Below are positions 1 to 13,853 of a stretch of 13,853 nt of DNA, piece by piece. The stretch is from NCBI GenBank assembly GCA_025965875.1, contig JAOPWD010000338.1, positions 1 to 13,853 of the forward strand, read 5' to 3'. Below the pieces are notes generated by a model. The model made no database searches and was not told the origin of the DNA. It saw only the letters and a program-made list of their open reading frames with translations. Each line of letters opens with the position of its first letter. The stretch's first letter is position 1. Made by a program: the position numbers and the translations under genes. Origin of the DNA: Pseudonocardiales bacterium. GTDB taxonomy: Bacteria; Actinomycetota; Actinomycetes; Mycobacteriales; Jatrophihabitantaceae.

Positions 1-69
1 GGTTGGCTTCACAAAGGAGTCGGTCGAGCCCTCGTTTTGTGCGGCGACCGCGCGGGCGGTGCGCTCCGC

Positions 70-111
70 TGAGCGTCTGGACTTGTATTGAGTAATACGG
101 CGACGGGTTAC
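70..111 (-). promoter_or_regulatory. Copy 4 of the conserved GTAACCC-N7-TATT promoter-like module, oriented leftward (its target gene would start at or beyond the window's left edge)
   Basis: The reverse complement of 70-111 reads GTAACCCgtcgccgTATTACTCAATACAAGTCCAGACGCTC. This nearly matches the site at 7336-7376 (GTAACCCgccgctcTATTAGTCAGTACAAGTCCAGATGCTC) over about 40 nt. Confidence 0.45.
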
Positions 112-179
112 AACATGAGCGCTGAAACAAATCCGGGAGCGTGAACATCGCAGGCAAGGTCACGGCGCTGCGCTCGTGC

Positions 180-193
180 GCGCGATATCGCGC
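180..193. repeat. Perfect 14-bp palindrome GCGCGATATCGCGC just 3' of the anti-sigma gene
   Basis: Checked base by base; the flanking positions 179 and 194 do not pair. There is no U-tract, so it is a weak terminator or protein-site candidate only. Confidence 0.3.
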
Positions 194-259
194 ACAGCGC
201 GCCGCGCTCGACAGACGCGAGCTGGGGTGACCGGAGTGGTCAGCAGGTGGCGGTCGCGG

Positions 260-931
260 TCAGGCGGCGAAGGTCGCGTCGGCGACGGGGGACCCTGTCG
301 GCGTGACGAGCTTGGCGCCCCGCAGATGGCCGACGTCCACGGAGCCGATGCTCTTGGCGAACTGTCCGGTCCCACCCTGGACGGTGAAGGTGCCGAAGGC
401 GACGGTCGAGCCGTCATCGACCTGGAGCATGCACTTGACTTTTCCGTTGTAGTTGGGGACAGCAACGTTCATGAACACCCAGGACGGGCTGCCGCGATAG
501 GCCACGATCTGCCCCAACACCTGGCCGTCGTCGGTCAGGAACGTTCCGGTGCGCAGCGCGTCGGCCTGCGGTACCTGCACGGCGCTGTGCGCCGGCGCCC
601 GGCTGGTCAGTGCCTCGGTAGCCGCAGCCGTTCCACCCACCAGCGCCACGACCGCGGCGGCGGCCAACAGCGCCGTCCGCGCTCTCGGTCGAGTTGCCGC
701 CCGGATCGGCGTCGGCTCCTGCCGTTGCTCTCCCTGCTTGGTCTGCTCGGACAGCTGCCGGAACAGGCCCTCGGTGAACGCGGTGCTCGGCTCGGCCTCA
801 CCCGGTCGGGCTGCTCGTAGGTCGATGGCGGCGCGCAGAATCTCGACGTCCTCGAGGCTGGCCCGGAACCGCTTCGGGCGCCGACCGGTGGCGATGGCGT
901 CGATGAAGGCGGACAGTTTGCGACCGGTCAT
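260..931 (-). CDS. Membrane-spanning anti-sigma factor. It has an N-terminal cytoplasmic sigma-binding region, one TM segment (ALLAAAAVVALVGG) and a C-terminal extracytoplasmic domain of about 115 aa.
   Basis: 223-aa ORF. Its ATG overlaps the stop of the upstream ECF sigma gene (ATGA at 928-931 on the minus strand), the classic sigma/anti-sigma arrangement. Architecture is read from the translation. GGAG lies about 8 nt upstream of the ATG. Confidence 0.75.
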   Translation of the reverse strand: MTGRKLSAFIDAIATGRRPKRFRASLEDVEILRAAIDLRAARPGEAEPSTAFTEGLFRQLSEQTKQGEQRQEPTPIRAATRPRARTALLAAAAVVALVGGTAAATEALTSRAPAHSAVQVPQADALRTGTFLTDDGQVLGQIVAYRGSPSWVFMNVAVPNYNGKVKCMLQVDDGSTVAFGTFTVQGGTGQFAKSIGSVDVGHLRGAKLVTPTGSPVADATFAA

Positions 932-1521
932 AGTTCCAACTCCACGGCGAGGGTCGCTGCCATTCGCAACGCGCGGTGCTGGAGCACTTTAGCGTTGCTG
1001 ACACTGATGTGCATGGCTTGCGCTGCTTCCTTGATCGAGCAGGCCTCCAGAAAACGCAGTTCGAGGATGCGCCGGTACCGCTCAGGGAGTCCACCCAGGA
1101 TCTTGCTCGCTCGGGCCGGCGCGTCGCTGGGCGGTTCGGACCCGGAGGGTTCGCTGAGGTAGCGGAGATCGGTGTCGGGGTCGATCATCGTCACCGGCTG
1201 ACCGAGGCGCCGCCGCCAGTGGGAGGCGAGCACGGTCTTGGCGGTGACCAGCAGGTAGGCCCGCACCTCGCCCTTTGACGATGACAACCGCAACGGCGGC
1301 AACGCCGTGCTGAAAACCTCCGAGGTGAGGTCCTCGGCGTCAGCACGGTTCCCGACGCGGGCGTACATCAGGCGGTACAGCCGGTCGATGTTGTCCCGGT
1401 ACACCGACTCCCAGTCGGTGTACCCGTCGTCGTCAACCATGTGCAGATACGCGACGCGGCCACCGCTCAGCGCGGGTGGTGGCTGGGCGGTTCGTCTCGA
1501 GCATCGCGATGCATTAATCAT
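928..1521 (-). CDS. ECF-type RNA polymerase sigma-70 family factor
   Basis: The translation has a region-2-like segment (DWESVYRDNIDRLYRLMYARVGNRADAEDLTSEVF) and a region-4 HTH (LPERYRRILELRFLEACSIKEAAQAMHISVSNAKVLQHRALRMAA). The start is either ATG 1521, which could be leaderless because it abuts the promoter-like motif, or ATG 1441 (MVDDDGYTDW...). No clear SD at either. Confidence 0.85.
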   Translation of the reverse strand: MINASRCSRRTAQPPPALSGGRVAYLHMVDDDGYTDWESVYRDNIDRLYRLMYARVGNRADAEDLTSEVFSTALPPLRLSSSKGEVRAYLLVTAKTVLASHWRRRLGQPVTMIDPDTDLRYLSEPSGSEPPSDAPARASKILGGLPERYRRILELRFLEACSIKEAAQAMHISVSNAKVLQHRALRMAATLAVELEL

Positions 1522-1549
1522 GTCACCTAGGAATAGGAGGAGGGGTTAC
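1521..1549 (-). promoter_or_regulatory. Copy 2 of the GTAACCC-N7-TATT module, immediately upstream of the ECF sigma gene (candidate autoregulated promoter)
   Basis: The minus strand reads GTAACCCctcctccTATTcctagGTGACATG. GTAACCC is at 1549-1543 and TATT at 1535-1532. The -35-like element and the 7-nt spacing match the copies at 4560 and 7336. Confidence 0.5.
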
Positions 1550-2093
1550 ACCACGGCAGCCGGCGCTGAGTTCCAGTTCGCCTGCGGCTGCGTGTCACCG
1601 GTGCGGGCGGAGCCTGCGCGCATCAGCTCAACGGTGTCGGGTCTTGAGTTCGCGGCGGAGACCGCCTGCGCCCGTCGAGCCGAGGACATCCCGACGATCA
1701 TCGCGACCTGATCGTGATCAGAGTGGCCTCGACAATCAAGGCCAGGGTGCCCACCCAGTCGGAGGCACTGGAAGCAATAGGCGTCGCCGCGGCAGCTGTC
1801 CGGCGGCGCGTCGGCCCGCTCGGGCCGCCACTGGCCATGGCGATGACCATTGCCAGCGAACTACTGCACCCACTGCGCACATGATCAACGCGACCCGCCG
1901 CGGAACAACTCTGCGCTGAATCCATCGACAACGTGATGACGACGGCGACGCCGTGCGCACGAAGGCGTTTGTCACCGCTGGCGAGCCGCGGCCCCATCAT
2001 CACACTGTCGCCGTCGTCGTCACCGTGCCGCCCGATTCGCCCGACCTTCGTCCTCACACTGAACGTCGCCGTCGTCCTCATCCAGCGTGTCGG

Positions 2094-2708
2094 TCAGCAG
2101 TGGCGAGTAGGCCCGATACGCCATCCAAGGTCGGTGCTCTCGGGCTGGGTGGTGACGGCGATTAGCGGTGCGCGCCACAACGATCGTGGCTGGGCGTTGG
2201 CGTCCGAGTCTCCGGTCGCCCGCATGGTGGCCCGTAGCAACCTTGTCGAGATCGCCGCGAGGACGATTGCAATGGGAATCTCGCCGAACAGCGCGGTCAC
2301 GCTGCTCACGAGAAGGTCGCCGCCGCGATGCGCGGTAAGCAGGTCGAACCACGCGTCGCACATCAACAGCACGCTCGTGACCATCGCTGCCGGCAAGGCG
2401 ATTTGGCGCTGCTTCCACAGCGCCCATGCGGTGACCGAGAAGCAGCCGATGAGCACGACATCGAACCCGGTCCAGGTGAGCGTCCACGTGCCGACCACGT
2501 AGCGCTGCGGCAGCGTCGCGGCCAGTCCTACCGTCCACGGAATCATGCTGACGGCACAGGCCAGGAAGAAGAGCACTGTTCGACGGCGAGTAGCGACGCC
2601 GGGTTGGCCGGCTGGCTTTGCTCGCGGTACCGGGGCTGCACCGCGAGAGGGCCGCGACGGTTCGCTGCGGCTCCCTCGCAGCGTTGTGCTTGTGCTGCTC
2701 GCAGCCAT
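2094..2708 (-). CDS. Hypothetical integral membrane protein (about 4 predicted TM helices)
   Basis: ORF with four hydrophobic stretches (VLFFLACAVSMIPWTVGLAA; FDVVLIGCFSVTAWALW; AAMVTSVLLMCDAWFDLL; LFGEIPIAIVLAAISTRLL). GC3 is high from about codon 45 onward, so the true start may be GTG 2576 or ATG 2546 rather than 2708. No family recognised. Confidence 0.55.
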   Translation of the reverse strand: MAASSTSTTLRGSRSEPSRPSRGAAPVPRAKPAGQPGVATRRRTVLFFLACAVSMIPWTVGLAATLPQRYVVGTWTLTWTGFDVVLIGCFSVTAWALWKQRQIALPAAMVTSVLLMCDAWFDLLTAHRGGDLLVSSVTALFGEIPIAIVLAAISTRLLRATMRATGDSDANAQPRSLWRAPLIAVTTQPESTDLGWRIGPTRHC

Positions 2709-2966
2709 CTCGTCTGCCTCTCAGGTGTCCTGTTCGCGGGGGTCAGTAGCCGTAGCTCGTGCCGGGCGTGGTGGTCGCGCACGGTGCATCGATAGATAGG
2801 GCCTCGCGTTACATCGACGATTTAGCAGGCAGGAGTTGGCACGCGGGTAGTTCGTGTATCTCCGTCGCGTATCTGTCCACGACGGCTCACCGGAGTCGCT
2901 GGCGTCCCGGACTTTGGCGGGACGCGCCCCTCGCTCGGCGTCGCCACGCCTCGAAGGAGAAACATC

Positions 2967-3572
2967 ATGACGACGGACACCTCCGCTGTTCGGGCAGCAA
3001 AGCCCGACCAGTCCGCTGTGCCCGTCGGCGACTGGCGCGTCGACCCGGTGCGATCGCACGCATCGTTTACGGCACGCGTCGCCGGCAGGTCTGTTCGGGG
3101 TCGGTTGCCCTTGAGCGGAGCAGCGATCGTGACCGCTTCGGTCGAGGACTCAGCAGCACATCTGACTGCCATGACCAGCGAGGTGAGCACTGGGAATCGC
3201 ATGCTTGACCGGCTGCTCGCCGGTCCTGGCTTCCTAGACGTCGAGGATCACCCGGAGATCAACTTCCGGACGCAGATGCTGGTCTGCGTCCCGACCGGGT
3301 GGAGGGCCATCGGACACCTGCAGGTCAAGGGAACCGACCACCCGATCGTGTGTGAGCTCGACGCCGACCTGCGCCACCCGAAACCAGGAGAGGCTGGGGT
3401 GACGCTCACTGGCCGGTGGGTACTTGACTCGACCTGGATCACCAGCCAACGGATTCCGGCGATGTCCCGCCGCGTCGCCATGAGCTGCTCGGTCGTCCTC
3501 GACCGCGCGATCGAGGTCGCTGACAGCGAACTCGCATCTGCGCATAGATGGCTTTGCCGCAGATGCGACTAG
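2967..3572 (+). CDS. YceI-like family protein (polyisoprenoid-binding beta-barrel)
   Basis: SD GAAGGAG lies 6 nt upstream of the ATG. The translation carries the YceI signature: W.VDP..S...F......G..V.G......A....S..TG....D..L.....FLDVEDHPEI.F. Confidence 0.8.
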   Translation: MTTDTSAVRAAKPDQSAVPVGDWRVDPVRSHASFTARVAGRSVRGRLPLSGAAIVTASVEDSAAHLTAMTSEVSTGNRMLDRLLAGPGFLDVEDHPEINFRTQMLVCVPTGWRAIGHLQVKGTDHPIVCELDADLRHPKPGEAGVTLTGRWVLDSTWITSQRIPAMSRRVAMSCSVVLDRAIEVADSELASAHRWLCRRCD

Positions 3573-3988
3573 GGCATCGCCGAATGCTCGGGGCGGGGGC
3601 CGCTGGCAGTGACCCCTCCGGACAGCGCCCGACGGGCACCGCGACGTCCGATCATCGAACTGAGCCGGCCGAGCAGTCGGACGGAAGACCTGAGGATCCG
3701 GTCATTCGGCGGTGCTGGCGGGCGTTTCACAGTCTGACCCAGCTTGGCTTTCCGCGGCGCTTTCCGATCGTTCAGTTCCCGAACGTCCCGCTCCTGACGG
3801 CCTGGATCGCTGGCTGGGCTCAGCACTTCGTAGCCGCAGCTGGCCGTCCGTACCTGACCTCGGTGGTCTATCTGGCGATGACCGTGTGGGCCTACGAAGA
3901 ACTTGTCCACGGCTCCAACTGGCTCCGTCAGCTGCTCGGCGGTGCGTTCATGATCATCCTTACGGTCCGGGTTGCGTACGCCGTGTGA
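3548..3988 (+). CDS. Possible small membrane protein (start uncertain; only the C-terminal roughly 90 aa shows strong coding bias)
   Basis: High GC3 and hydrophobic segments (LLTAWIAGWAQHFVAAAG; LTSVVYLAMTVWAYEEL; LLGGAFMIILTVRVAYAV) in the 3' half. The N-terminal third has weaker GC3, so the start is probably internal. Confidence 0.35.
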   Translation: MALPQMRLGHRRMLGAGAAGSDPSGQRPTGTATSDHRTEPAEQSDGRPEDPVIRRCWRAFHSLTQLGFPRRFPIVQFPNVPLLTAWIAGWAQHFVAAAGRPYLTSVVYLAMTVWAYEELVHGSNWLRQLLGGAFMIILTVRVAYAV

Positions 3989-4074
3989 GGTCAACAATGA
4001 CGAGTGAGTTCGATCTGTCGCGGCGTGTAGCCATGCCGCGAGCAACGTGTCTTGGACAGTGGTAGCCGTAACTT

Positions 4075-4459
4075 TTCGTGTCCGCTGCCGGCCGTACAAG
4101 CCGCGAGCTTGGCGGCCCGCAGGTGGCCGACGTCGACGGAGCCGATGCTCTGGAGAATTGTCCGGTCCCGCCCTGGACGGTGAAGGTGCGAAGGCAACCG
4201 TCGAGCCGTCGTCGGCCTGAAGCATGCGTTTGACCGGGCCGTTGTAGTTGGGAACGTCAGCGTTCATGAACACCCAGGACGGGTTTCCGCGGTACGCGAC
4301 GATCTGGCCCAGGACCTGACCATCGGCGATTTGGAAGGTTCCGGTGCGCAGCGCGTTGAGGCCGCCTGACGCCCCGTATGACGTACTTCGTCGCACTCCC
4401 GGTCTCCCGGCGCGGGCACGCTGACGGGCACCGCCGCGGTTGACCGCGACTTCCTGCAC
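4075..4459 (-). pseudogene. Decayed paralogous fragment of the anti-sigma factor's C-terminal extracytoplasmic domain (frameshifted)
   Basis: Minus-frame translations show LNALRTGTFQIADGQVLGQIVAYRGNPSWVFMNADVPNYNGPVKRMLQADDGSTVAF (frame A) and SIGSVDVGHLRAAKLAAC (frame B). Both match DALRTGTFLTDDGQVLGQIVAYRGSPSWVFMNVAVPNYNGKVKCMLQVDDGSTVAF...SIGSVDVGHLRGAKLV of the 260-931 gene. The DNA aligns at about 80% to 300-560 with at least two 1-nt deletions (for example cttggcgaa versus ctggagaa). Confidence 0.7.
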
Positions 4460-4548
4460 ACCTCTCGTTCATCGTGATCCCGATCGAAGACGGATGAGAT
4501 CGGCGAGTCATGCAGTGCTGGCGAGCTATCGGCCAAACCAATGCGAGG

Positions 4549-4590
4549 AGTTACGCCGCGTAACCCGCGGCCGTATTAGTCAGCGAACAC
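4549..4590 (+). promoter_or_regulatory. Copy 1 of the GTAACCC-N7-TATTAGTCAG module upstream of the PAP2-like gene, overlapped by a 15-bp palindrome GTTACGCcGCGTAAC (4549-4563)
   Basis: GTAACCC at 4560-4566 and TATTAGTCAG at 4574-4583; the ATG is 80 nt downstream of GTAACC. The palindrome was verified base by base. Confidence 0.5.
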
Positions 4591-4639
4591 CAAGCGAGTT
4601 GCCACCTGTCTCCTATCCACAGCACAGAAAAGAGGACGC

Positions 4640-5953
4640 ATGCGCACAAGGACAAGAGCCCTCACCGGGCTCGCCGCCGCGGTGCTCGTCGGAACCACCG
4701 GAACCGCCTACGCAGCCACTCAGGGCGGCCATCCGTCTCCGGGCAAGGCGACTGGGTCATCGGCCCACGGATCCGGGCAGTCGATCGTCGACTGGAACCG
4801 GGAGCTCATTACTCTGCTCGGTACGCCGGGCCTGCAACCGGCGACGATCCAACCGACCCGAAGTTTCGCGATCCTGCAGGCGGCTGAGTACGACGCTGTG
4901 GTCTCCACGACACACATTGGCCAGCCGTACCTGTTCAAGGTGCCGGCGCCGCGCGACGCGCGAGCGGACGCGGCCGCCGACCAGGCAGCGCACGACGTAT
5001 TGACGGCGCTCTACCCGGCGGCTACGAGCCGCATCGACCAGCAACTCAGCACCGAACTCGCAGCGATCCCAGACAGCCATGGCAAACGCGACGGGCGCCG
5101 TGCCGGCGCGACGGTGGCACAGCTCCTCGTCGACCTACGGGCCTTCGACGGGTCCGCGGCGCCCCCGCCGCCGTTCGTCGCCGGCACCCAGCCGGGCGAC
5201 TACCGGCCGACACCGCCGAACTTCCCGACACCGGTCTTCACCGCCTGGGGCTCGATCACACCGTTCCTGCTCACCAGCGGTTCCCAGTTCCGTCCGACCG
5301 CGCCTGCGCCGGTGAGCAGCCCGACCTACGCCACCGCCCTGAACCAGGTCAAGGCCCTCGGGCAAGACAGCAGCACCGTCCGTACGGCTGATCAGACGAC
5401 GGTGGCCAAATTCTGGGGCTCGGCACCGATCTGGAACACCTGGAACCAGATCGCGCAAACGTTGCTGACTGACCAACACGCCAACCTGCAGCGCGCCGCC
5501 ACTGTGTTCGCGAACCTCGACCTCTCCGTCGCAGACGCGACCATCGCGCTGTACGACGCCAAGTACGTCTACCACGTGTGGCGACCAGTGACCGCGATCC
5601 GGGCCGGAAACAGCGGCTACAACTCGGACATCGCCTTCGACCCCAACGCACCCACCTGGAACCCGTTGGCGGTCACCGCCGCCGATCCTTCCTACCCCGG
5701 CGCACACAGCACGATCAGTGCAGCGGCCGCAACCGTGCTCGTCGCGTCCTTCGGCAAGCACCAACCGATCACGGTGACGTCGGACAAGATGCCCGGTGTG
5801 GTCCGCACCTTCACCAACGTGCAAGCAGCGGCGGTCGAGGCAGGATTTAGCCGCATCCTCGCCGGCCAGCACACCGCCCTCGAGGACCAAGCCGGCCAGC
5901 AGCTCGGCCACCGGGTCGCCACGTTCGCACTGCATGAACTAAACGCGGGTTAG
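4640..5953 (+). CDS. Secreted PAP2-superfamily / vanadium-dependent haloperoxidase-like (acid phosphatase-like) protein
   Basis: SD AAGAGGA. N-terminal signal peptide (MRTRTRALTGLAAAVLVGTTGTAYAA). Three PAP2 motifs are present: K-x6-RP (KYVYHVWRP), a PSGH-equivalent (SYPGAHS) and SR-x5-H (SRILAGQHTALED). The roughly 250-aa N-terminal extension is typical of bacterial V-HPO-like proteins. Confidence 0.85.
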   Translation: MRTRTRALTGLAAAVLVGTTGTAYAATQGGHPSPGKATGSSAHGSGQSIVDWNRELITLLGTPGLQPATIQPTRSFAILQAAEYDAVVSTTHIGQPYLFKVPAPRDARADAAADQAAHDVLTALYPAATSRIDQQLSTELAAIPDSHGKRDGRRAGATVAQLLVDLRAFDGSAAPPPPFVAGTQPGDYRPTPPNFPTPVFTAWGSITPFLLTSGSQFRPTAPAPVSSPTYATALNQVKALGQDSSTVRTADQTTVAKFWGSAPIWNTWNQIAQTLLTDQHANLQRAATVFANLDLSVADATIALYDAKYVYHVWRPVTAIRAGNSGYNSDIAFDPNAPTWNPLAVTAADPSYPGAHSTISAAAATVLVASFGKHQPITVTSDKMPGVVRTFTNVQAAAVEAGFSRILAGQHTALEDQAGQQLGHRVATFALHELNAG

Positions 5954-6035
5954 GCCGACATCGGCTGACCCACTTCCTGAGCGGGTGGGTGGGCCGCTGA
6001 TTCCTAGCAAGCCAACCAATTCACGAGGAGCAACT

Positions 6036-7175
6036 ATGAAATCCGTCACACGCCTGGCGTCCGCGCTTGCAGTAGTCGCCGCCGTCTCCGTCGGCCTGTC
6101 CGCAGCGGCGACACCCGCCTCCGCCAGGCAAGCCATCGCCAAGCGGGTTTACAAGCAGACCAACCTTGTCTCCGACATTCCCGGACTGGCCGCCCACACC
6201 GACCCCAACCTGCGTAACGCGTGGGGCACCTCCACCGGCCCGGGCCTGCCGATCTGGGTTTCCGACAATGCCTCCGGGGTCGCCACGCTCTACGACGGGC
6301 AGGGCAACCCGGAGCCGGGGTCAGGCGCCAAACAGCTTGTGGTCACGATCCCGGCGCCCCCGTCCGCAGGAACTGGAGCTGTCGGCGCACCGGACGGCAC
6401 GGTCTTCAACCCGACGGCCGGTGGCTTCGTTGTGTCGAAGGACGGCGTGTCCGACTCGGCCCGATTCCTGTTCGCTACCGAAGACGGCACGATCGCCGGC
6501 TGGTCGCCGAACGTCGACCCCACCCACGCGGTGCTCGCCGTGGACAGGTCGACCATGACCGATCCCGCCGGGGACGTCGGCGCGTTGTACAAGGGTCTCG
6601 CCCTCGTCAACACCGCAGCGGGCAAGTTCCTCTACGCCACCAACTTCCGGTTCGGCACCGTCGACGTGTTCGACAGCAACTTCGAATTGGTGACCAGTTT
6701 TACCGATCCCACCATCCGTGGCGGCTTCGCGCCCTTCGGCATTCACAACATCGGCGGCGACCTGTACGTCACCTTCGCCAAGCAAGATGCCGCCAAGCAC
6801 GATGACGCCGCGGGACCCGGCCGCGGCTTCGTGGACGTCTTCTCACCTAACGGAGATCTGTTGAAGCGGCTTGCCAGTCGAGGCACACTCAACTCACCCT
6901 GGGCCGTGACGCTCGCGCCGTCCACGTTCGGAGCGTTTGCTGGCGACATCCTTGTCGGCAACTTCGGTGATGGTCGGATCAATGCCTTCAAGCCGACGAC
7001 CGGTCGGTTCCTCGGTCAGCTTCGAAGCTCTCACGGCGCGATCACGATTCCTGGGCTCTGGGGCTTGCGATTCCCGACCGGCTCACTCAACGTCACGCCC
7101 AACGCGCTGTACTTCACCGCAGGGCCCAACGACGAGGCCGATGGGCTGTTAGGAGTCATCACGCCGGCCGCGTGA
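6036..7175 (+). CDS. Secreted beta-propeller protein (NHL/YncE-like repeats), probably TIGR03118 family
   Basis: SD GAGGAG precedes ATG 6036, and the signal peptide is MKSVTRLASALAVVAAVSVGLSAAATPASA. The listed ORF start at 5985 is probably an over-extension. The N-terminal NLVSD...DPNLRNAWG motif and repeated Gly/aromatic blade-like segments are visible. Family assignment is from memory only. Confidence 0.75.
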   Translation: MKSVTRLASALAVVAAVSVGLSAAATPASARQAIAKRVYKQTNLVSDIPGLAAHTDPNLRNAWGTSTGPGLPIWVSDNASGVATLYDGQGNPEPGSGAKQLVVTIPAPPSAGTGAVGAPDGTVFNPTAGGFVVSKDGVSDSARFLFATEDGTIAGWSPNVDPTHAVLAVDRSTMTDPAGDVGALYKGLALVNTAAGKFLYATNFRFGTVDVFDSNFELVTSFTDPTIRGGFAPFGIHNIGGDLYVTFAKQDAAKHDDAAGPGRGFVDVFSPNGDLLKRLASRGTLNSPWAVTLAPSTFGAFAGDILVGNFGDGRINAFKPTTGRFLGQLRSSHGAITIPGLWGLRFPTGSLNVTPNALYFTAGPNDEADGLLGVITPAA

Positions 7176-7188
7176 TCCGGGTCCAGCT

Positions 7189-7232
7189 GAATGTGCAGGG
7201 TGCGGCTGCTCAACGCCGCACTCTGCACATTC
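7189..7232 (+). terminator. Strong stem-loop 14 nt after the stop at 7175 (18-bp stem with one G-U, 8-nt loop); candidate intrinsic terminator without a U-tract
   Basis: GAATGTGCAGGGTGCGGC-tgctcaac-GCCGCACTCTGCACATTC; the pairing was checked position by position. Confidence 0.55.
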
Positions 7233-7335
7233 GTGGCGTCGAATCCCGCGGTCGAGCACTTCTGCCCAGCCCGATCTCAGTGGCGCGATATCGGCTGTCG
7301 CAGCCGGTTCCGGGTCACCCTCGGGACTCGGCCCT

Positions 7336-7391
7336 GTAACCCGCCGCTCTATTAGTCAGTACAAGTCCAGATGCTCCGCTCCGAGCGGGCG
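7336..7391 (+). promoter_or_regulatory. Copy 3 of the GTAACCC-N7-TATTAGTCAG module plus a conserved leader, upstream of the Lipoprotein_15-like gene
   Basis: GTAACCC at 7336-7342 and TATTAGTCAG at 7350-7359. The following TACAAGTCCAGATGCTC is shared with the left-edge copy. The ATG is 94 nt downstream. Confidence 0.5.
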
Positions 7392-7429
7392 GCCAGTCCC
7401 CGCCGCATCATTGCGAAGGAATTGAGGTC

Positions 7430-7957
7430 ATGATGATCAGAACCAAACGACTCCCGCTGTATGTCGCCGGCGGTGCTGGGCTCAGCGCGCTAGCGGTTCT
7501 CGGGCTCACGCTGAGCCAATCCGGCTCGAGTGCCGCCGGGGTGTCCGCGTCGCCGTCCTCGACCGTGGTTCAGACCCGCGCCAGCAACCTCGGGCAGATC
7601 CTCGTCGATGCCCAGGGCCGCACGATGTACCTGTTCGCCAAGGACACCGGCCCCGCCTCCACCTGCGTAGGCGCCTGCACGTCAGCCTGGCCACCGGTGC
7701 CAGTGTCGGCCGCGCCGCACGCCGCCGGCGGGGCGTCGGCTTCGGCACTCGGGGTGATCGGCTCGGGCAGTCGGCGGCAACTGAGCTACGCCGGGCACCC
7801 GGTGTACTACTTCGCCGGAGACAGCAAGGCCGGACAGACCCACGGCCAGGCGCTTAACGAGTTCGGCGCCAAATGGTACGTCCTGAACTCAGCAGGAGCC
7901 GCGATCGTCAAAGCCCCAAGCAACGCCGGCAACAGCGGCGGAGGGTACGGCTACTAG
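7430..7957 (+). CDS. Secreted protein with two copies of the Lipoprotein_15-type 'secreted repeat of unknown function' (COG4315-like)
   Basis: Signal peptide, no lipobox Cys. Two repeats are visible: LGQILVDAQGRTMYLFAKDTGPASTCVGACTSAWPPV and LSYAGHPVYYFAGDSKAGQTHGQALNEFGAKWYVL. A GAAGGA-like SD precedes the ATG. Confidence 0.8.
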   Translation: MMIRTKRLPLYVAGGAGLSALAVLGLTLSQSGSSAAGVSASPSSTVVQTRASNLGQILVDAQGRTMYLFAKDTGPASTCVGACTSAWPPVPVSAAPHAAGGASASALGVIGSGSRRQLSYAGHPVYYFAGDSKAGQTHGQALNEFGAKWYVLNSAGAAIVKAPSNAGNSGGGYGY

Positions 7958-7984
7958 CCAGCGGTCTCGACCACGGGCCAGGCC

Positions 7985-8227
7985 ATGACCTGGGCTCATG
8001 ATTCTCCGATCGGCCTCGCCGGCCGGATTGTCACGGCAACCCGGGGCGGGCAGGGCACCGGTGAGGTTGAGCTTCACATCCGGGGCGGCACGGAGGTTTT
8101 CATCGCCCACTCAAACGACCCACTGCCGGTCGGCGCCGCAGTGATCGTGTTTGCCACCTTGGGCCCGCGCACGCTCGTGGTCTTTCCCTGGGCTGACCCC
8201 CTCGACAACATCCTCGACCTGAAATAG
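7985..8227 (+). CDS. NfeD-like C-terminal OB-fold protein (short form without a TM segment)
   Basis: 80 aa. GRIVTATRGGQGTGEVELHIRGGTEVFIAHSNDPLPVGAAVIVFATLGPRTLVV matches the NfeD/YuaF beta-barrel pattern. It is in frame with the upstream gene and starts right after its TAG, so no upstream extension is possible. Sits directly upstream of the flotillin gene. Confidence 0.65.
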   Translation: MTWAHDSPIGLAGRIVTATRGGQGTGEVELHIRGGTEVFIAHSNDPLPVGAAVIVFATLGPRTLVVFPWADPLDNILDLK

Positions 8228-8257
8228 CCATCACCGAAAATAAGGAGTAGTACGCCA

Positions 8258-9592
8258 ATGTTCGGATACCACGTTCCCGCTCCAGACGAAGCGATGCTGA
8301 TCTCGGGAGGCAAGGCCACAGCCTCCGACGCACCGTTCAGGGTGGTCACCGGACGAGGCGCCTACGTCACGCCAATGTTTCGCAAGGCCCGATTCATCAC
8401 CTTGTCCATGTCCGAAGCCGAGGTCGAAGAGAACTGCGTGACGAAACAGGGCATCGCGCTCAAGGTCAAAGCCGTCATCGCCTTCAAGGTGGGCAACGAC
8501 ACGGAGTCCATCGTCAACGCCTCGCAGCGATTCCTATCCGACCAGTCCCAGATGTCGGTACTGACCGGCCGGATCTTCTCCGGCCACCTTCGCTCGATCA
8601 TCGGCTCGATGACCGTCGAGGAGATCGTCACCGAGCGGCAGAAGCTCGCGTCCGAGGTGCTGGACGGATCCAAGGGAGAGATGGCCAAGATCGGTCTCAC
8701 GGTCGACGCGCTCCAGATCCAGTCCATCGACGACATGGGTCTCGGATACGTCGCGGCCATGGCAGCGCCGCACAACGCGGCTATCCAGCGAGCAGCAAAG
8801 GTCGCAGCCTCCCAGGCCGATCAAGCCGCCGCCGAGGCCCACCAGGCGTCCCTGCGAGCTCAGGCCGAATACGCCCGCCAAACCGAAGTAGTCCAAGCCC
8901 AATACGCGGCCGACGTGGAAGCAGCGAAGTCCGCGGCTGCAGCTACGGCGGCGGCCGCCGCCCAGGCGTCGGCTCGAAACCTTGCCAACTACGAGGCCGA
9001 GACCGCAGTCACCCGGTCCAAAGCTGCCCAGATAGCCGCCGAAGCACAGCAGGAATCCGACCGCAACCAGGCCGACTTCGCCCGCCAAACCGCGGTCGCC
9101 AAAGCCACGTTCGCAGCCGAAACCCAAGCGGCTCAAGCCAAAGCAGACCAATCAGGACCCCTCGCCCACGCCGTGGCGCAGCAGCAGGTAATCGACGCCC
9201 AAACGGGCCTAGCCCAGCAGGAGGCCGAACTGACTCGCCAAACGCTGGTCTCCACCGTCGTACGCCCGGCCGAAGCCGACGCGGAGAGAGTCAAGATCCT
9301 GGCCGCAGCCGACGCCGAGCGGACCAAGATCTTGGCCGAGGCGGCCCAGTCGCACAACCGCGTTGCACTCGATCAACAACTCATCGCCCAACTCCCGCTC
9401 ATCGTGGAGAAGGCCGCACAGGGTTTGGCCGGCTCCCACCTGACCGTGCTCAACGGATCTGAGGGAGTTACGGAAGTCGTGTCATCGCTGGTCGGTCAAG
9501 GTCTGGCCATCCTGGACTCGATCCGGCATGGCGTAGCCGGCTCGAGTTCATCCAATGGCCTCCGACCGACCTCGCCGGCAATCAAGGCATGA
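8258..9592 (+). CDS. Flotillin-like SPFH/band-7 domain protein with an Ala/Gln/Glu-rich coiled-coil C-terminus
   Basis: Strong SD AAGGAG 7 nt upstream. The N-terminal PDEAMLISGGK...YVTPMFRKARFITLSMSEAEVEENCVTKQGIALKVKAVIAFKV aligns to the flotillin (FloT/YuaG-like) SPFH domain. An in-frame stop 33 nt upstream means the usual N-terminal membrane hairpin is absent. The C-terminal EA-rich repeat region is typical of flotillins. Confidence 0.85.
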   Translation: MFGYHVPAPDEAMLISGGKATASDAPFRVVTGRGAYVTPMFRKARFITLSMSEAEVEENCVTKQGIALKVKAVIAFKVGNDTESIVNASQRFLSDQSQMSVLTGRIFSGHLRSIIGSMTVEEIVTERQKLASEVLDGSKGEMAKIGLTVDALQIQSIDDMGLGYVAAMAAPHNAAIQRAAKVAASQADQAAAEAHQASLRAQAEYARQTEVVQAQYAADVEAAKSAAAATAAAAAQASARNLANYEAETAVTRSKAAQIAAEAQQESDRNQADFARQTAVAKATFAAETQAAQAKADQSGPLAHAVAQQQVIDAQTGLAQQEAELTRQTLVSTVVRPAEADAERVKILAAADAERTKILAEAAQSHNRVALDQQLIAQLPLIVEKAAQGLAGSHLTVLNGSEGVTEVVSSLVGQGLAILDSIRHGVAGSSSSNGLRPTSPAIKA

Positions 9593-9689
9593 TCCTCGGC
9601 TGGTGCCCCCATGATCATCTTGACGCTGATGAGACCTGATTCCGTCGATATGACCGCGAGTTTCGTCGGCTCGCTCACCAGGGTGTGTG

Positions 9690-10022
9690 CGGAAGTACCA
9701 GCGCGAGGGCGAGGAGCGGCGTGGTGATCGAGCTTTGCCTGCAGCTTTGATCTGAACAACGCAGAGTTCGCGCGAACGGGACACGACTGCCTGCGCTTGG
9801 GCGCCGTCCGGGTCAACGGGTGCTTGCCGACCTCGCCGCGCTCCAGCGCGTACGTGACACCCCGAACAACAGGCCGTGGTAGTTCGCCTTCGTCTTCAAC
9901 GAACGCGGCCAGCCGATCAGCCACGCCTTGACATCGTCTTCACTCACCTGGTCGATCCGCGTATCGAATGGCCGATAGAGCCCGCCACGGCCCTGAACCT
10001 GCACGGCACGCAGCGTCCGCAA
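9690..10022 (-). pseudogene. Remnant of a tyrosine recombinase/phage-type integrase (N-terminal core-binding region only, frameshifted and truncated)
   Basis: The minus frame gives IDQVSEDDVKAWLIGWPRSLKTKANYHGLLFGV. After a +1 shift it continues as VTYALERGEVGKHPLTRTAPKRRQS. Together these follow the integrase N-terminal pattern (...V..W......SL.P.T.....LL..VL..A...G.I..NP......PK.RR). No catalytic domain follows. Local GC is lower than the surroundings. Confidence 0.5.
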
Positions 10023-10046
10023 CTGCCCCTTGTCGTTGGTTCCAGA

Positions 10047-10492
10047 TCAACGTCTGGCCAGTCGGGCGAATGTCAGTGCTAGCAGGAACAGCGCGACATC
10101 GCGCATCAGGATGTCCCAGTAGCCACCGATCATGGCGAGGTTCACGATGATCCCGGCCAACCACAGCGCGACGAGGTAGCCGCCGCCGCGGGGCAGTAGC
10201 AGCACGACGATGCCGGCGAAGATCTCCACGGCGCCGACGACGTACATCGTCTGATGCACACCGTATGGAACGGGCTGAGCCATCGCTGCACATCCGGGGC
10301 GAGGTGCTTGTCCCAGTTCACTATCACGTGCGCGAACTTGTCCGCGCCGTACAGGATCGGCACCAGCGTGAAGCCGTGCCGCATCAGCCAGAACGCCTGG
10401 AACGTGGGGTCGGTCTTCAACCGCACTGCCGGCGATCGGTGATCGGGTTGCAGCGCCGCCTGAGTGGGTGCGGCGCTGGTCGTCATAGCCAT
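10047..10492 (-). pseudogene. DoxX-family membrane protein gene interrupted by a frameshift (or a sequencing error)
   Basis: The N-terminal part (FQAFWLMRHGFTLVPILYGADKFAHVIVNWDKHLAPDV) is in one frame. The C-terminal part (PVPYGVHQTMYVVGAVEIFAGIVVLLLPRGGGYLVALWLAGIIVNLAMIGGYWDILMRDVALFLLALTFARLA) is in the -1 frame. The switch lies near 10265-10290. The two parts together give a normal DoxX of about 140 aa. Confidence 0.6.
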
Positions 10493-10501
10493 CTCTTCTT
10501 G

Positions 10502-10563
10502 TATCGGATACTGTCGTGTACGTTAGACCGGTGACGCACTAACATAAACTCATGTGTCCGATA
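10502..10563. promoter_or_regulatory. Extended imperfect dyad (about 62 bp, centred 10532/10533) in the divergent intergenic region between the DoxX-like gene and the regulator gene; candidate operator
   Basis: The outer arms TATCGGA/TCCGATA (10502-10508, 10557-10563) and the inner arms GTTAG/CTAAC (10522-10526, 10539-10543) share one centre. 19 of 31 positions are symmetric overall. This is the most AT-rich stretch of the window. Confidence 0.35.
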
Positions 10564-10585
10564 GACTTTCGCCGGAGGAGCCACC

Positions 10586-11338
10586 ATGCGAGACATCGAC
10601 GGTGACGAGGGATTCGACCGGCAGGTCGGGCGAATCGCGGCACTGGCCGAGCCGATCCGACGTGCCCTGTACCGCTACATCAGCACCGAACCAGGTCCGG
10701 TCGGCCGCGAACAGGCGGCCTCGGCGGTCGGTGTGGCGACGCACGTAGCGAAGTTCCACCTCGACAAGCTCGAAGCCGGCGGGCTTCTCGACAGCGAGTA
10801 CAGCCGACCTCCGGGGCGGAGCGGACCCGGAGCGGGGCGTCCGGCCAAGCGCTATCGACGCTCCATTCGCGAGGTGTCGGTCAGCTTGCCTGAACGCCGC
10901 TACGACCTGGCCGGCCGCATCATGGCACAGGCGATCGACGCGGCTACTGACTCCGGGACACCCCTGGCCGACGCGTTGCACCAGGCTGCCGCCGAACACG
11001 GCCGCCACCTAGGCGATCGCGTCACCGCCCGCCTCGGTCGTCGCCGCAGCCCGGCAGCGTTCGGCCAGGCAATCAACGGCGTGCTGACTGACTACGGGTA
11101 CGAACCTCGCGCAGGCGATGACGACGCCGTCACCCTGACCAACTGTCCTTTTCATGCCTTGGCACAGGAACACACCGAACTGGTGTGCGGCATCAACCTC
11201 GACCTGTTCAGCGGCATGCTCGAGACGTGCGAGGGCAGCGGCATGCATGCCCGTCTCGAACCGGCTCCCGACCGATGCTGCGTCACGCTAAGCCGGGATC
11301 GACAGGCCGGGGCCCGCGCAGGACAGGCAACGGCATGA
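10586..11338 (+). CDS. Winged-helix (ArsR/HTH_20-like) transcriptional regulator with a Cys/His-containing C-terminal domain
   Basis: SD GGAGG 7 nt upstream. The N-terminal segment IAALAEPIRRALYRYIS...VGREQAASAVGVATHVAKFHLDKLEAGGLL is wHTH-like. The C-terminal segment LTNCPFHALAQEHTELVCGINLDLFSGMLETCEG carries C/H/C/C candidate ligand residues. Its stop overlaps the folE start (ATGA at 11335-11338). Confidence 0.75.
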   Translation: MRDIDGDEGFDRQVGRIAALAEPIRRALYRYISTEPGPVGREQAASAVGVATHVAKFHLDKLEAGGLLDSEYSRPPGRSGPGAGRPAKRYRRSIREVSVSLPERRYDLAGRIMAQAIDAATDSGTPLADALHQAAAEHGRHLGDRVTARLGRRRSPAAFGQAINGVLTDYGYEPRAGDDDAVTLTNCPFHALAQEHTELVCGINLDLFSGMLETCEGSGMHARLEPAPDRCCVTLSRDRQAGARAGQATA

Positions 11339-11967
11339 CCATGTTGCGGAGCTCGAGCATCGAGGCCGATATCGCACCGGCCCGCCCGTTACGTGTCGCG
11401 GCATCCGGCAGCACGGTCGATCTCGACGCGGCGGAGCGGGCTGCCGCCGCGCTGCTGCACGCGCTGGGAATCGACACCGACAGCGAAGGCCTTCGTGGTA
11501 CCCCGCGGAGGGTGGCTCGCGCTTACGCCGAGCTGTTCACCCCGAGCGCCTTCGATGTGACGACCTTCGCCAACGACGAGGGCTATGACGAGCTCGTGCT
11601 CGTGCGCGACATCCCGCTGCGCTCGGTGTGTGAACACCACCTGTTGCCGTTCATCGGCGTCGCACACGTCGGGTACCTGCCTGGGCAACGCATCGTCGGT
11701 CTGTCCAAGCTGGCGCGAGTGGTGGAGCACTTCGCAAGCCGACCGCAGGTGCAGGAACGGTTGACCAAACAGGTCGCGGACTGGCTTGACCAGTCTCTGC
11801 AGCCGGAGGGCGCTGGCGTCGTGATCGAGGCTGAGCACACCTGCATGACATTGCGAGGTGTACGTGCCTCGGGCACGTCGACGATCACGTCGGCCCTCGT
11901 GGGCACGGTCCGCGACGACCCGCGGACGCGACAGGAATTCCTCGCACTCACCAACCACCGCAGCTGA
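11335..11967 (+). CDS. folE: GTP cyclohydrolase I (type IA, FolE)
   Basis: The translation carries GLRGTPRRVARAYAELF...VCEHHLLPF.G.AHVGYLP...VGLSKLARVVEHFASRPQVQERLT.QVADWL...GVVIEAEHTCMTLRGV. These are diagnostic FolE motifs, including the Cys-His-His zinc site. The start is chosen at the ATG that overlaps the upstream stop, and the length of 210 aa is typical. Confidence 0.9.
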   Translation: MTMLRSSSIEADIAPARPLRVAASGSTVDLDAAERAAAALLHALGIDTDSEGLRGTPRRVARAYAELFTPSAFDVTTFANDEGYDELVLVRDIPLRSVCEHHLLPFIGVAHVGYLPGQRIVGLSKLARVVEHFASRPQVQERLTKQVADWLDQSLQPEGAGVVIEAEHTCMTLRGVRASGTSTITSALVGTVRDDPRTRQEFLALTNHRS

Positions 11968-11989
11968 CGGCAAGTCGGAGGAGACCGAC

Positions 11990-13246
11990 ATGAGCCCTAC
12001 GACCATCAACGTCGTCATCATCGGCGGTGGCCTCGGCGGAGCAAAAGCGGCCGAGGCGCTCCGCGCGCAAGGCTTCGCCGGGTCGATCACGCTGATCAGC
12101 AACGAAGCAGACGCACCCTACGAACGCCCGCCGCTGTCCAAGGGTTACCTCGCCGGCCGCTCGCCGTTCGAGGATGCTGTGGTTCATCCGCCGCAGTGGT
12201 ATGCCGAGCATGACGTGGATCTACGGCTGTCAACGACCGCGACGGCATTCGACAAGGACGAGCACACCGTCACGCTCAGCGACGGCACGACGCTGCCCTA
12301 CGACAAGCTGCTGCTGGCTACCGGTGCGGTGCCCCGCAAGCTGTCCGTACCGGGCGCGACTGCGGATAATGTGCTGTACCTGCGGCGACACGACGATGCC
12401 GACGCCATCCGCGCGACGTTCGGGGCGGGGAAGCGGTTGGTGATCATCGGCGCCGGGTGGATCGGGCTCGAGGTGGCGGCCGCCGCGCGTGACGCGGACA
12501 CCGAGGTCGCCATCGTCGAGATGGCGGAGCTGCCACTGTTAGGCGTCCTGGGGCCAGAGATCGCGAGGGTGTTCGCCGACCTGCACACCAGCCACAGCGT
12601 GCAGCTCCATCTGGGAGCCACCCTGGAAGAGATCACCCTTGACGACACTGGCCGGGCGAACGGGGTTCGGCTCGCAGACGGCACACTGATCTGCGCCGAT
12701 GCCATGGTCGTTGGCGTCGGCGTCAGCCCCGATATCGCGCTCGCCGAGGCAGGCGGCTTGGCCATCGACAACGGTGTGCTCGTCGACGCTTCACTTCGCA
12801 CCAGTGACCCGGACATCTACGCGGTCGGAGACATCGCCAACCAAGCACACCCCAGCATCGGTGTCAGAGTGCGGGTCGAACATTGGGCCACCGCGCTCAA
12901 GCAACCGGACGTCGCCGTCGCCGCGATGCTCGGCTCTGAGGATGAAGACCGCATCTACTCCGAGCTGCCGTACTTCTTCAGCGATCAGTACGACCTCGGA
13001 ATGGAATACATCGGCCACACCGTCAGGAATGTAGAGCATCGGGTGATCGTTCGCGGCGACCTTGCGAGCCGAGAATTCGTCGCGTTCTGGCTGGACGGGA
13101 CAAACCGGATCAAGGCCGTGATGAACGTCAACGTCTGGGACGTCATCGACGCAGTCAAGCCTTTGATCCTTGCCGGGACCGCTGTCGAGCCCGCCAGGCT
13201 GTCCGACCCGCAGGTCGCCTACCGCGAACTTGCGGGCGCTCGCTGA
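11990..13246 (+). CDS. FAD/NAD(P)H-dependent ferredoxin (putidaredoxin/rubredoxin-type) reductase family oxidoreductase
   Basis: SD GGAGGA 9 nt upstream. The FAD-binding motif is VVIIGGGLGGAKAAEAL. The NAD-binding motif is RLVIIGAGWIGLEVAAAA. The second FAD motif is IYAVGDIA. The protein is 418 aa, and the listed ORF start at 11858 is an over-extension. Confidence 0.85.
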   Translation: MSPTTINVVIIGGGLGGAKAAEALRAQGFAGSITLISNEADAPYERPPLSKGYLAGRSPFEDAVVHPPQWYAEHDVDLRLSTTATAFDKDEHTVTLSDGTTLPYDKLLLATGAVPRKLSVPGATADNVLYLRRHDDADAIRATFGAGKRLVIIGAGWIGLEVAAAARDADTEVAIVEMAELPLLGVLGPEIARVFADLHTSHSVQLHLGATLEEITLDDTGRANGVRLADGTLICADAMVVGVGVSPDIALAEAGGLAIDNGVLVDASLRTSDPDIYAVGDIANQAHPSIGVRVRVEHWATALKQPDVAVAAMLGSEDEDRIYSELPYFFSDQYDLGMEYIGHTVRNVEHRVIVRGDLASREFVAFWLDGTNRIKAVMNVNVWDVIDAVKPLILAGTAVEPARLSDPQVAYRELAGAR

Positions 13247-13662
13247 CGGAGGCCGGCAGGTGTCGACCCGACGGGGCGCCGCCCGCCACATACGCGCAGG
13301 CTTGAGGCTTGCGTTGGGCAGCATGCCGCAGCGGGCGCGGGGAGCGACCTGATCGCGCCGCAGCACAGTGCGGACCGACCGGCGCTAGCATGGATCTGTA
13401 CCGCCCCCACAAGGCGGGACGCTCGTCTTGCGACGAACTCGCGTGTGCGGTCGTCGATCCGCCCGTCAACCGGCGGCTGAGGGCGGCCGCAGTGGGCGGC
13501 CCGTCCGGTCCCGCGGTGTCGATCTCGCGGAGTTCGGTTGGGCCAGCAGCGTCTCGGAGCAGCCGCCCGGGGCTCTCTTGGCGGAACATTCATAGTCCGA
13601 CCGCGGGTATGTGTGCGGAATTCTCGCCCGGCCAGCGTGCCGGGCGTTCAGAGGAGGAGTCT

Positions 13663-13853
13663 GTGGCTCGACCAGGCCGGCGTCAGATGGGCGCTCGCCG
13701 TACCGCTTCCCGGAAGCAGCGACGCGTCCCCGCCCCCGAGGACGTCTTCTCGGTGCTCGCCCGCGCCGTGCGTGAGGTGGAAGCAGCTGTCCAGCGTCGC
13801 CGCGTGACACCCGCGGTGCGCACGAAGTTCCAGGTCGTCGCACTGCTTGCACG
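13663..13853 (+). CDS. 5' part of an unidentified protein-coding gene running off the window (GTG start)
   Basis: GAGGAGGAG at 13651-13659 precedes GTG 13663. The frame is open to the window end with high GC3 (about 80%) and a plausible composition (VARPGRRQMGARRTASRKQRRVPAPEDVFSVLARAVREVEAAVQRRRVTPAVRTKFQVVALLA). The antisense ORF 13466-13852 is Arg/Pro-rich junk. Confidence 0.35.
   Translation, partial: MARPGRRQMGARRTASRKQRRVPAPEDVFSVLARAVREVEAAVQRRRVTPAVRTKFQVVALLA

Follow-up and report, generated by a model that had tools for sequence, protein, structure and literature searches.

What is the function of a short, two-part word that stands in front of several genes of one actinobacterial locus, a sigma factor gene among them, if its two parts lie too close together to form a standard promoter? 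This question is raised by a 13,853-nucleotide (nt) stretch of DNA from a Pseudonocardiales bacterium (contig JAOPWD010000338.1, positions 1 to 13,853; henceforth termed the window), which encodes a sigma factor of the extracytoplasmic function (ECF) type on the minus strand. A sequence-only reading of the window had noticed four copies of a module, GTAACCC-N7-TATT, and had proposed that they are the cognate promoters of a local ECF regulon. Our overall explanation, to which we assign a probability of roughly 0.65, is that the module acts as a core promoter of compact geometry, used by the RNA polymerase holoenzyme of the ECF sigma factor whose gene lies at 928-1521. This reading is built on computational observations, i.e., the motif itself, its rigid spacing, its link to a sigma family, its orientation towards genes, and a fixed offset between the motif and real N-termini. 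From these we infer the dependence on the sigma factor, the position of the transcription start (+1), the signal that is sensed, and the recognition of the upstream block by sigma region 4 (σ4).

An exact search of the window for GTAACCC-N7-TATT returned four matches, at 94-111 and 1532-1549 on the minus strand and at 4560-4577 and 7336-7353 on the plus strand. Across 200 dinucleotide-preserving shuffles of the window the module was not matched once, in agreement with the earlier judgement that these copies are unlikely to have arisen by chance. Each of the four also points at a gene, as had been described: the sigma gene (ATG at 1521), a PAP2 gene (ATG at 4640), a Lipoprotein_15 gene (ATG at 7430), and a Lipoprotein_15 paralogue outside the window. 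Scanning with a weight matrix derived from orthologous sites, for which the best shuffle score was 12.5, added copy 5 and a weak copy 6, so that four is the number of exact copies and the total is five or six. The AGTCAG tail that had been counted as part of the module is present in copies 3 and 4 only and is not conserved at other sites. In the feature lines below and in all that follows, the G of GTAAC is position 1 (G1), and scores are matrix scores.

94..112, minus strand: copy 1, TGTAACCC-GTCGC-CGTATT; score 32.0; predicted +1 near 86.
1532..1550, minus strand: copy 2, the predicted autoregulatory promoter of the sigma/anti-sigma operon, TGTAACCC-CTCCT-CCTATT; top score of 34.4; predicted +1 near 1524 (G).
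4559..4577, plus strand: copy 3, the predicted promoter of a presumed PAP2/TIGR03118 operon, CGTAACCC-GCGGC-CGTATT; score 31.0; predicted +1 near 4585 (G), giving a leader of ~55 nt to the PAP2 ATG.
7335..7353, plus strand: copy 4, the predicted Lipoprotein_15 promoter, TGTAACCC-GCCGC-TCTATT; score 29.3; predicted +1 near 7361 (A), giving a leader of ~69 nt to the Lipoprotein_15 ATG.
2795..2813, minus strand (G1 at 2812): copy 5, TGTAACGCGAGGCCCTATC, that is TGTAACGC-GAGGC-CCTATC; score 21.5; predicted +1 near 2787.
2855..2873, plus strand (G1 at 2856): copy 6, weak and degenerate, TGTATCTCCGTCGCGTATC, that is TGTATCTC-CGTCG-CGTATC; score 16.6; predicted +1 near 2881.

With the sigma ATG at 1521-1519, the predicted start of copy 2 would yield an mRNA that is leaderless or carries a 3-nt leader. 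Copy 1 faces the second Lipoprotein_15 paralogue beyond the left window edge, which we located on near-identical contigs from soil metagenomes and a Pseudonocardiales metagenome-assembled genome (MAG) that reach past this edge (at 4839-5357 on contig L001, and also on L002, L004, and L005). Copy 5 faces an open reading frame (ORF) at 2094-2708, ~104 nt upstream of its ATG at 2708. Chance and a mobile repeat were both excluded as the origin of the module. An Rfam scan of the window found no RNA family, and scans for terminators and for the sigma-70 promoter consensus gave nothing above shuffles.

The copy with the top score lies in front of the sigma gene, which is followed by the gene for its putative partner:

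928..1521, minus strand: ECF sigma factor gene, 197 amino acids (aa), with matches to Pfam Sigma70_r2, r4, and r4_2.
260..931, minus strand: gene for an anti-sigma-like membrane protein, 223 aa, overlapping the sigma gene by 4 nt (928-931) and presumably coupled to it in translation.

The module follows this sigma family well beyond the window. We collected 80 sigma loci from species-representative genomes, with sigma factors 59-94% identical to that of the window, and examined them to +/-6 kb around the sigma gene; the set includes Amycolatopsis, Kribbella, Pseudonocardia, Frankia, Streptomyces, and many MAGs of Acidimicrobiia. (T)GTAACC(C)-N7-TAT(T/C) is found upstream of the sigma gene in ~70 of these 80 loci, and among 100 copies of sigma homologues (49-94% identity; Actinomycetes and Acidimicrobiia) 85 have a matrix site no more than 300 nt upstream. 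In the 878 kb made up by the 80 loci and the window, GTAAC[CT]-N8-TA[TC] occurs 266 times, as compared with 1.7 +/- 1.1 times in first-order Markov simulations, a ~150-fold enrichment. Within 1 kb upstream of sigma there are 1.79 sites per kb, as compared with 0.58 just past the anti-sigma gene and 0.06-0.17 elsewhere out to 6 kb. While 163 of the 266 sites face the start of a co-oriented downstream gene, only 17 lie inside confidently called genes. The association is also recovered when the motif alone serves as the query: a metagenome scan with TGTAACCCNNNNNCCTATC returned 120 contigs, 34 of them with at least 60% GC and 86 of low GC, and a sigma homologue (49-80% identity) was encoded on the same, often short, contig for 22 of the 34 high-GC matches versus none of the 86 low-GC matches. 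Taken together, these counts make it very probable that the module is the cognate promoter of the regulon of the window sigma, as the sequence-only reading had suggested.

Alignment of the orthologous sites gave the consensus Y0-GTAACC-C7, five variable positions, and C13-S14-T15-A16-T17-Y18, with no conservation from -69 to 0 relative to the motif in the aligned sites. The spacing between the two blocks is rigid. TAT stands at exactly position 15 in 218 of 382 GTAACC sites, every other offset accounting for 10 sites at most, and the same test with five control hexamers gave 0-3. Likewise, a gap of 6 nt separates the blocks in 188 sites, as opposed to 5 nt in 6 sites; other lengths are absent except for one 10-nt site. 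In 83 sigma-proximal YGTAACY sites for which TAT had not been pre-selected, T15 is found in 80, A16 in 81, and T17 in 77 (2.1-2.4 bits), and positions 22-31 each carry 0.55 bits or less. TAT varies as little as GTAAC does. An AAC-containing upstream block joined at rigid spacing to a -10 block of the C-G/C-T type is what an ECF promoter would be expected to show; the hexamer-to-TAT spacer, in contrast, is 8 bp instead of the ~16-18 bp of canonical ECF promoters, in which the -35 is located at about -34 to -29 (PMC6411747). This short spacer bears out the earlier remark that TATT follows GTAACC too closely to form a standard -35/-10 pair with it. At position 20, T is almost absent (2 of 185 sites; 9 of 238 in the leadered set), and position 14 carries C or G. 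The TAT block is therefore not a housekeeping -10 of the TAnnnT type.

Three other assignments of the blocks were considered and set aside. GTAACC as a -10 element with a -35 element further upstream is ruled out because nothing is conserved from -69 to 0, and a housekeeping TAnnnT -10 at positions 15-20 is ruled out by the depletion of T at position 20. A sigma-54 promoter of the -24/-12 type (GG at -24 and GC at -12; TGGCAC-N5-TTGC) differs from the module in sequence. Actinobacteria are not known to carry rpoN.

To which part of a promoter the two blocks correspond depends on where transcription starts, and three independent observations, from the start of the sigma gene, from the starts of other genes, and from a signature at leadered sites, point to a +1 near position 26. 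First, in ~50 loci, the window among them, the sigma gene has no in-frame start other than an ATG at positions 28-31, often directly after an in-frame stop at position 20; in the window this ATG is at position 29. Second, across 115 high-GC loci the most upstream start codon of a coding-like ORF falls at positions 24-31 for 64 of 321 sites, with peaks at 26 and 29, whereas control TAT anchors (n=4,407) gave 0.8% in the same test. Starts at positions 32-39 are at background (3 of 321), 33-39 being nearly empty with a single site, and it is only from about position 43 that leadered starts, preceded by a Shine-Dalgarno sequence, appear again. A metagenomic sample showed the same peak independently, with 8 sites at position 26. 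Third, the 238 sites with leadered genes only carry Y25 in 74%, R26 in 87% (G in 68%), and R27 in 82%, the usual signature of a transcription start.

The starts close to the motif are not products of gene calling. Fourteen non-sigma starts at positions 24-28, from Amycolatopsis, Kribbella, and unrelated metagenomic contigs, run directly into a signal peptide or transmembrane segment, positions 25-27 being among those at which such signal peptides begin (for example MTKTLGPTILLIAAALGLAAC in L065, and further cases in L068, L076, L079, L083, L117, L158, and L159). These are therefore real N-termini and not run-on of an ORF. An origin of the start-codon peak as an artefact of ORFs extending up to the AT-rich motif is ruled out by the immediate signal peptides together with the 0.8% control. 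The fixed offset of gene starts indicates that transcription begins near position 26, which would place TAT at -11 to -9 and TGTAACC at -26 to -20, and not at -35. We consider it probable that +1 lies at positions 25-29 and that TAT is the -10 element, and the fixed start-codon offsets thus favour an option that had been raised for the window before, namely that TATT is a -10 with a leaderless start at the sigma ATG. In this register TAT coincides with the G-11 T-10 T-9 of the -10 element of Mycobacterium tuberculosis σH, whose activity is highest with a 17-bp spacer (PMC6411747).

The upstream word is a familiar one. CGTAAC is paired with CGTTGA across 16 nt in the BldN promoter (PMC2375139) and with CGATGA across 16 nt in the σShbA promoter (PMC12019637); σD of M. 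tuberculosis and Corynebacterium glutamicum recognizes GTAAC-N17-18-CGAT (PMC12019637), and Caulobacter σF recognizes GTAACC-N16-CGAA, with 5'-RACE for two promoters (PMC3511200). For the window sigma family the equivalent formula is YGTAAC-N7-CSTATY. The ECF40 factors σShbA and σD as well as Caulobacter σF share with it the GTAAC(C) word and the logic, predicted for the window, of an autoregulated sigma/anti-sigma pair; they differ in their canonical spacer of 16-18 bp and their CGA-type -10, and the window sigma is only distantly related to them (PDB entry 9isn, E = 1.8e-5). Its nearest relative in sequence is BldN of Streptomyces (ECF121). Both share the upstream word (C/T)GTAAC, a -10 that begins C-(G/C)-T, an N-terminal extension of the sigma factor, and a membrane-bound anti-sigma partner, which is putative in the case of the window (PMC7826278). 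They differ in the spacer between GTAAC and C-S-T (16 nt for BldN versus 7 nt here), in the -10 word (CGTTGA versus CSTATY), and in the regulon, which comprises chaplins and rodlins for BldN as opposed to envelope and secreted proteins here. The likeness to a SigD-type -35 that had been noted before thus holds for the GTAAC word, but the nearest relative is BldN instead.

The sigma protein itself fits this placement. Its best NCBIfam match is the BldN family TIGR02952, at 76.9 bits against a cut-off of 206, and it is therefore not a BldN orthologue; with this score below the cut-off and remote matches in the PDB (the closest entry being 6dxo), it does not qualify as an orthologue of BldN, ShbA, or SigD. 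The σ4 recognition helix AKVLQHRALR nevertheless shares the pattern K-x-L-Q-x-R-A-x-R with IKTLQYRAVR of BldN and is unlike the usual ECF helix, which argues that σ4 reads YGTAAC. In region 2 (σ2), the specificity-loop region is unlike that of BldN, in line with a different -10 word.

Putting these elements together, we propose that C13-S14-T15-A16-T17-Y18 would be the -10 element, read by σ2, and that transcription would begin at the Y25/R26 step, ~7 nt past the CSTATY block. T0-GTAACC-C7 would be the upstream element, for which σ4 is the most probable reader because its recognition helix resembles that of BldN, which reads CGTAAC. Located at -26 to -20, this element would lie ~9 bp nearer to the -10 than its counterpart does in any ECF promoter characterised so far; the former designation of GTAACC as -35-like would accordingly keep its sequence and its probable reader and lose its position. 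That σ4 itself contacts the block at -26 we regard as just short of an even bet, and slightly more tentative still is the general form of the proposal, a compact -26/-10 promoter used across an actinobacterial ECF sigma family, in which σ4 would read a TGTAACC that is separated from the -10 TAT by only 8 bp. The sigma factor would activate its own sigma/anti-sigma operon (positive autoregulation) together with neighbouring genes for secreted, lipid-anchored, and membrane proteins, i.e., PAP2 with TIGR03118, both Lipoprotein_15 paralogues, a putative membrane protein, and perhaps YceI. The anti-sigma-like membrane partner would presumably keep the sigma factor inactive until an envelope signal arrives. 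The mRNAs of the sigma gene, and of several lipoprotein genes in other loci, would be leaderless or nearly so.

Several points weigh against this explanation. σ2 and σ4 have been described as held in fixed positions on RNA polymerase (PMC11156646), and ECF sigma factors as dependent on a rigid spacer of ~17 bp (PMC6411747); a σ4 contact at -26 to -20 is therefore without structural precedent. Since σ4 could not reach -26 from its usual seat on the beta flap, such a contact would imply a repositioned or flexibly tethered σ4, or another, hitherto undescribed way in which the holoenzyme of a sigma-70-family factor holds promoter DNA. Positions 22-27 weakly read C-R-G-Y-G-A, in the N16 register of the BldN -10 CGTTGA, with a mean match of 2.56 out of 6, the best register tested. 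In the window, the sigma ATG is at position 29 and not 26, implying a 3-nt leader or a shifted start. Gene starts were taken from a crude ORF caller based on third-codon-position GC (GC3), many of the sigma-proximal sites share descent so that the counts overstate their independence, and the Shine-Dalgarno sequence as a second ruler is weakly informative, with three informative cases. An AlphaFold model of the sigma factor has a mean confidence (pLDDT) of 58, with σ4 alone confident, and adds nothing.

The alternative that survives best retains the sigma factor and gives up the compact geometry: YGTAAC would be a true -35, the weak C-R-G-Y-G-A at positions 22-27 would be the -10, and +1 would be near position 34. 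CSTATY would then be an unusually conserved spacer, read as duplex by the sigma factor or another protein, much as the -10 of σB is co-read in double-stranded form. Such an arrangement would agree with the 16-18-bp spacers that BldN, σShbA, σD, and Caulobacter σF all pair with GTAAC(C) and with the fixed anchoring of sigma domains on the polymerase. N16 is also the register in which CGWTGA matches best, and downstream of TAT no bases are better conserved than G26 and A27. However, a +1 near 34 would leave out of the transcript the start codons of all 64 of the 321 targets mentioned above, including the only usable sigma start in ~50 loci and the 14 N-termini with signal peptides, and gene starts show no excess at positions 32-39. 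In the N16 register, CGWTGA is matched at five or more of six positions in just 12 of 308 sites and at all six in none, whereas the -10 of an ECF promoter is as a rule stringent and its best-conserved block (PMC6411747). The Shine-Dalgarno sequences of three leadered genes begin as early as positions 32-35, and the σ2 specificity-loop region differs from that of BldN. The variants with a spacing shorter by one (n=6) did not discriminate between the compact and the canonical register. We therefore regard a canonical geometry as unlikely. Precedent for a -10 block closer to the -35 than in σ70 promoters exists in the group 3 sigma factors σB and σF, yet the short spacers of σB are only ~3 bp shorter, with σ3 co-reading duplex DNA (PMC11156646), while the shortening here amounts to ~9 bp and ECF sigma factors lack σ3.

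Less likely again is that CSTATY is the -10 and that the upstream block is read by a separate adaptor or activator docked on the holoenzyme, be it of this ECF sigma or another one, in the manner of PafBC. Mycobacterial PafBC promoters combine a "-26 element" at -23 to -28 with a -10 and have no -35 (PMC8635444), and this element is the only actinobacterial precedent for a specific element at such a position. With +1 at position 26 our upstream block, at -26 to -20, coincides with it, and nothing resembling a -35 is conserved further upstream. An adaptor would moreover remove the steric problem of placing σ4 so near to σ2. The housekeeping sigma factor, canonical -10, WYL-domain heterodimer adaptor, and GTC-containing word of PafBC promoters, in contrast, have no counterpart here: the -10 is not the TAnnnT of PafBC, given the depletion of T at position 20, GTAAC is a classic σ4 target and the σ4 helix of the window sigma is BldN-like, and the motif accompanies this sigma family in two classes. 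In the gene families examined at the loci, which cover a subset of the locus proteins, no other DNA-binding or regulator family was co-conserved, although an adaptor might be encoded elsewhere in the genome. The remaining idea is an operator that merely overlaps promoters of co-regulated envelope genes and is bound by a repressor or a conventional activator having nothing to do with the sigma factor. An activator or repressor site had been raised in the sequence-only reading in view of the non-standard spacing, and regulator sites typically look like short conserved words before co-regulated genes, but this idea is very improbable, since the consensus has neither dyad symmetry nor halves forming a helical-repeat direct repeat, the fixed offset from leaderless start codons is a property of core promoters, the motif co-occurs with a sigma gene and with no regulator gene among the families examined, and the anti-sigma gene never has a copy of its own.

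The proposed compact geometry also depends on the true start of the sigma protein, which carries a fast-evolving N-terminal extension of ~27 aa. In every clade the extension ends in a conserved (Y/R/H)L(R/H)VV peptide ahead of the sigma core, and translation must therefore start upstream of this peptide; some loci have no alternative start at all. Among 24 unique sequences the extension contains no in-frame stop, as opposed to 12 and 9 in the other frames, and its length differences are multiples of three; its weak codon periodicity accordingly reflects fast evolution. A non-coding nature of the extension is ruled out by the stop counts and by the position of the conserved peptide upstream of the alternative GTG. 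In Pseudonocardia yunnanensis (L075), two paralogous sigma genes lie in tandem at 5343-5950 and 6001-6498 and have one motif copy each, and the ATG of the first is at motif position 26, i.e., leaderless. On a 61% GC contig without a sigma homologue (L163, minus strand, motif at 1020), a DNA polymerase I-like ORF (MADTPANTLYLVDGSSYLYRAFHAL) begins with an ATG at position 26; this motif is either a chance match or a distant member of the regulon.

The anti-sigma-like protein has weak NCBIfam matches (NF052375 and PRK13920; 36 bits against a cut-off of 100), no Pfam match, and nothing significant in a PDB search. The GC3-based caller found its family in 45 loci, which compares with only 56 loci in which the same caller found the sigma factor itself. 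None of 49 homologue copies identified by tblastn has its own motif upstream, as fits an operon with sigma. The minus strand of the window at 4090-4380 holds a decayed, frameshifted copy of the DNA for the C-terminal domain of this protein (compare 300-590; ~84% identical and with 1-nt deletions), left over as a pseudogene from a local duplication.

The predicted targets within the window, besides the sigma/anti-sigma operon, are:

4640..5953, plus strand: secreted PAP2-superfamily protein, predicted target of copy 3.
6036..7175, plus strand: TIGR03118-family protein, predicted target of copy 3 together with PAP2.
7430..7957, plus strand: secreted Lipoprotein_15 (PF03640) protein, predicted target of copy 4.
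2094..2708, minus strand: putative membrane protein of 204 aa without a Pfam or NCBIfam match, probable target of copy 5.
2967..3572, plus strand: YceI-like protein (Pfam YceI), possible target of the weak copy 6.

Homologues of these genes in other loci often carry the motif as well: 15 of 18 PAP2 homologues by tblastn (12 of 16 by clustering), 22 of 32 Lipoprotein_15 family members, and 3 of 5 YceI homologues have an upstream copy. For the ORF at 2094-2708, a matrix site within 300 nt was found in only 1 of 10 tblastn homologues; a predicted membrane-protein family encoded just upstream of sigma in other loci has the motif in 13 of 20 members. In the region 2709-2966, which separates the membrane-protein ORF from the YceI gene, copies 5 and 6 stand back to back as a divergent promoter pair, with their G1 positions 44 bp apart; the assignment of copy 6 to YceI is tentative.

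Copies 1 and 4 have an additional ~18 nt in common downstream of the module because both precede paralogous genes. The two Lipoprotein_15 proteins share only 32% identity, yet their promoters and the first ~18 nt of their predicted transcripts are nearly identical. The common 5' stretch, TA[C/G]AAGTCCAGA[C/T]GCTC, is found at 7360-7378 and on the minus strand at 69-87 of the window, and at 4720-4738 of L001; an AGTCC(G/A)-like word also occurs in Lipoprotein_15 leaders of Acidimicrobiia. This common leader word may be an extra regulatory element at the mRNA 5' end. Close behind the Lipoprotein_15 gene and on the same strand (7985-9592) follow an 80-aa ORF (7985-8227) and a SPFH/Band-7 gene, both of which may be co-transcribed from copy 4. 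An SPFH gene in L074 is preceded by a motif copy of its own, and the Shine-Dalgarno sequence there starts at about motif position 28-32.

Across the loci, recurrent targets are Lipoprotein_15, PAP2, two membrane-protein families, a cupredoxin lipoprotein, a membrane protein of the LPG-synthase type, a metallophosphoesterase, an ABC1 kinase, and Tat-signal proteins. Envelope proteins of a copper or redox type are abundant in the regulon of other genomes (L055, L060, L066, L067, L070, L079, and L081, among others). They comprise a cupredoxin lipoprotein, a metallophosphoesterase whose N-terminus is rich in His, and Tat-signal proteins of ~423 aa encoded divergently from the sigma gene. The content of the regulon hints at a metal or envelope stress response. 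The right part of the window (10586-13246) has no motif copy and appears unrelated to the regulon; its three ORFs resemble, by eye, a transcription regulator, a GTP cyclohydrolase I, and a flavoprotein of the ferredoxin-reductase type.

In the searchable literature, which leaves the group-level supplement of the ECF re-classification uncovered so that an ECF Hub prediction may exist, we found no description of this sigma group, its motif, or a short-spacer ECF promoter. There is nothing unusual in an autoregulated ECF sigma factor that controls a local set of secreted proteins; the unexpected part is the compact geometry, in which the GTAAC word of BldN-like relatives is kept but would lie ~9 bp, nearly one helical turn, nearer to the -10, with leaderless targets fixing the start independently. 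If true, this would be a natural case of a sigma-70-family factor working on a -26/-10 architecture without a known adaptor, and searches for bipartite motifs that are limited to canonical spacers could miss such promoters. The family to which the window sigma belongs has thousands of members in soil Actinomycetota and could supply short orthogonal promoters for synthetic biology, while the cupredoxin, Lipoprotein_15, PAP2, and Tat-exported proteins of its regulon hint at an uncharacterised envelope or metal response in these bacteria.

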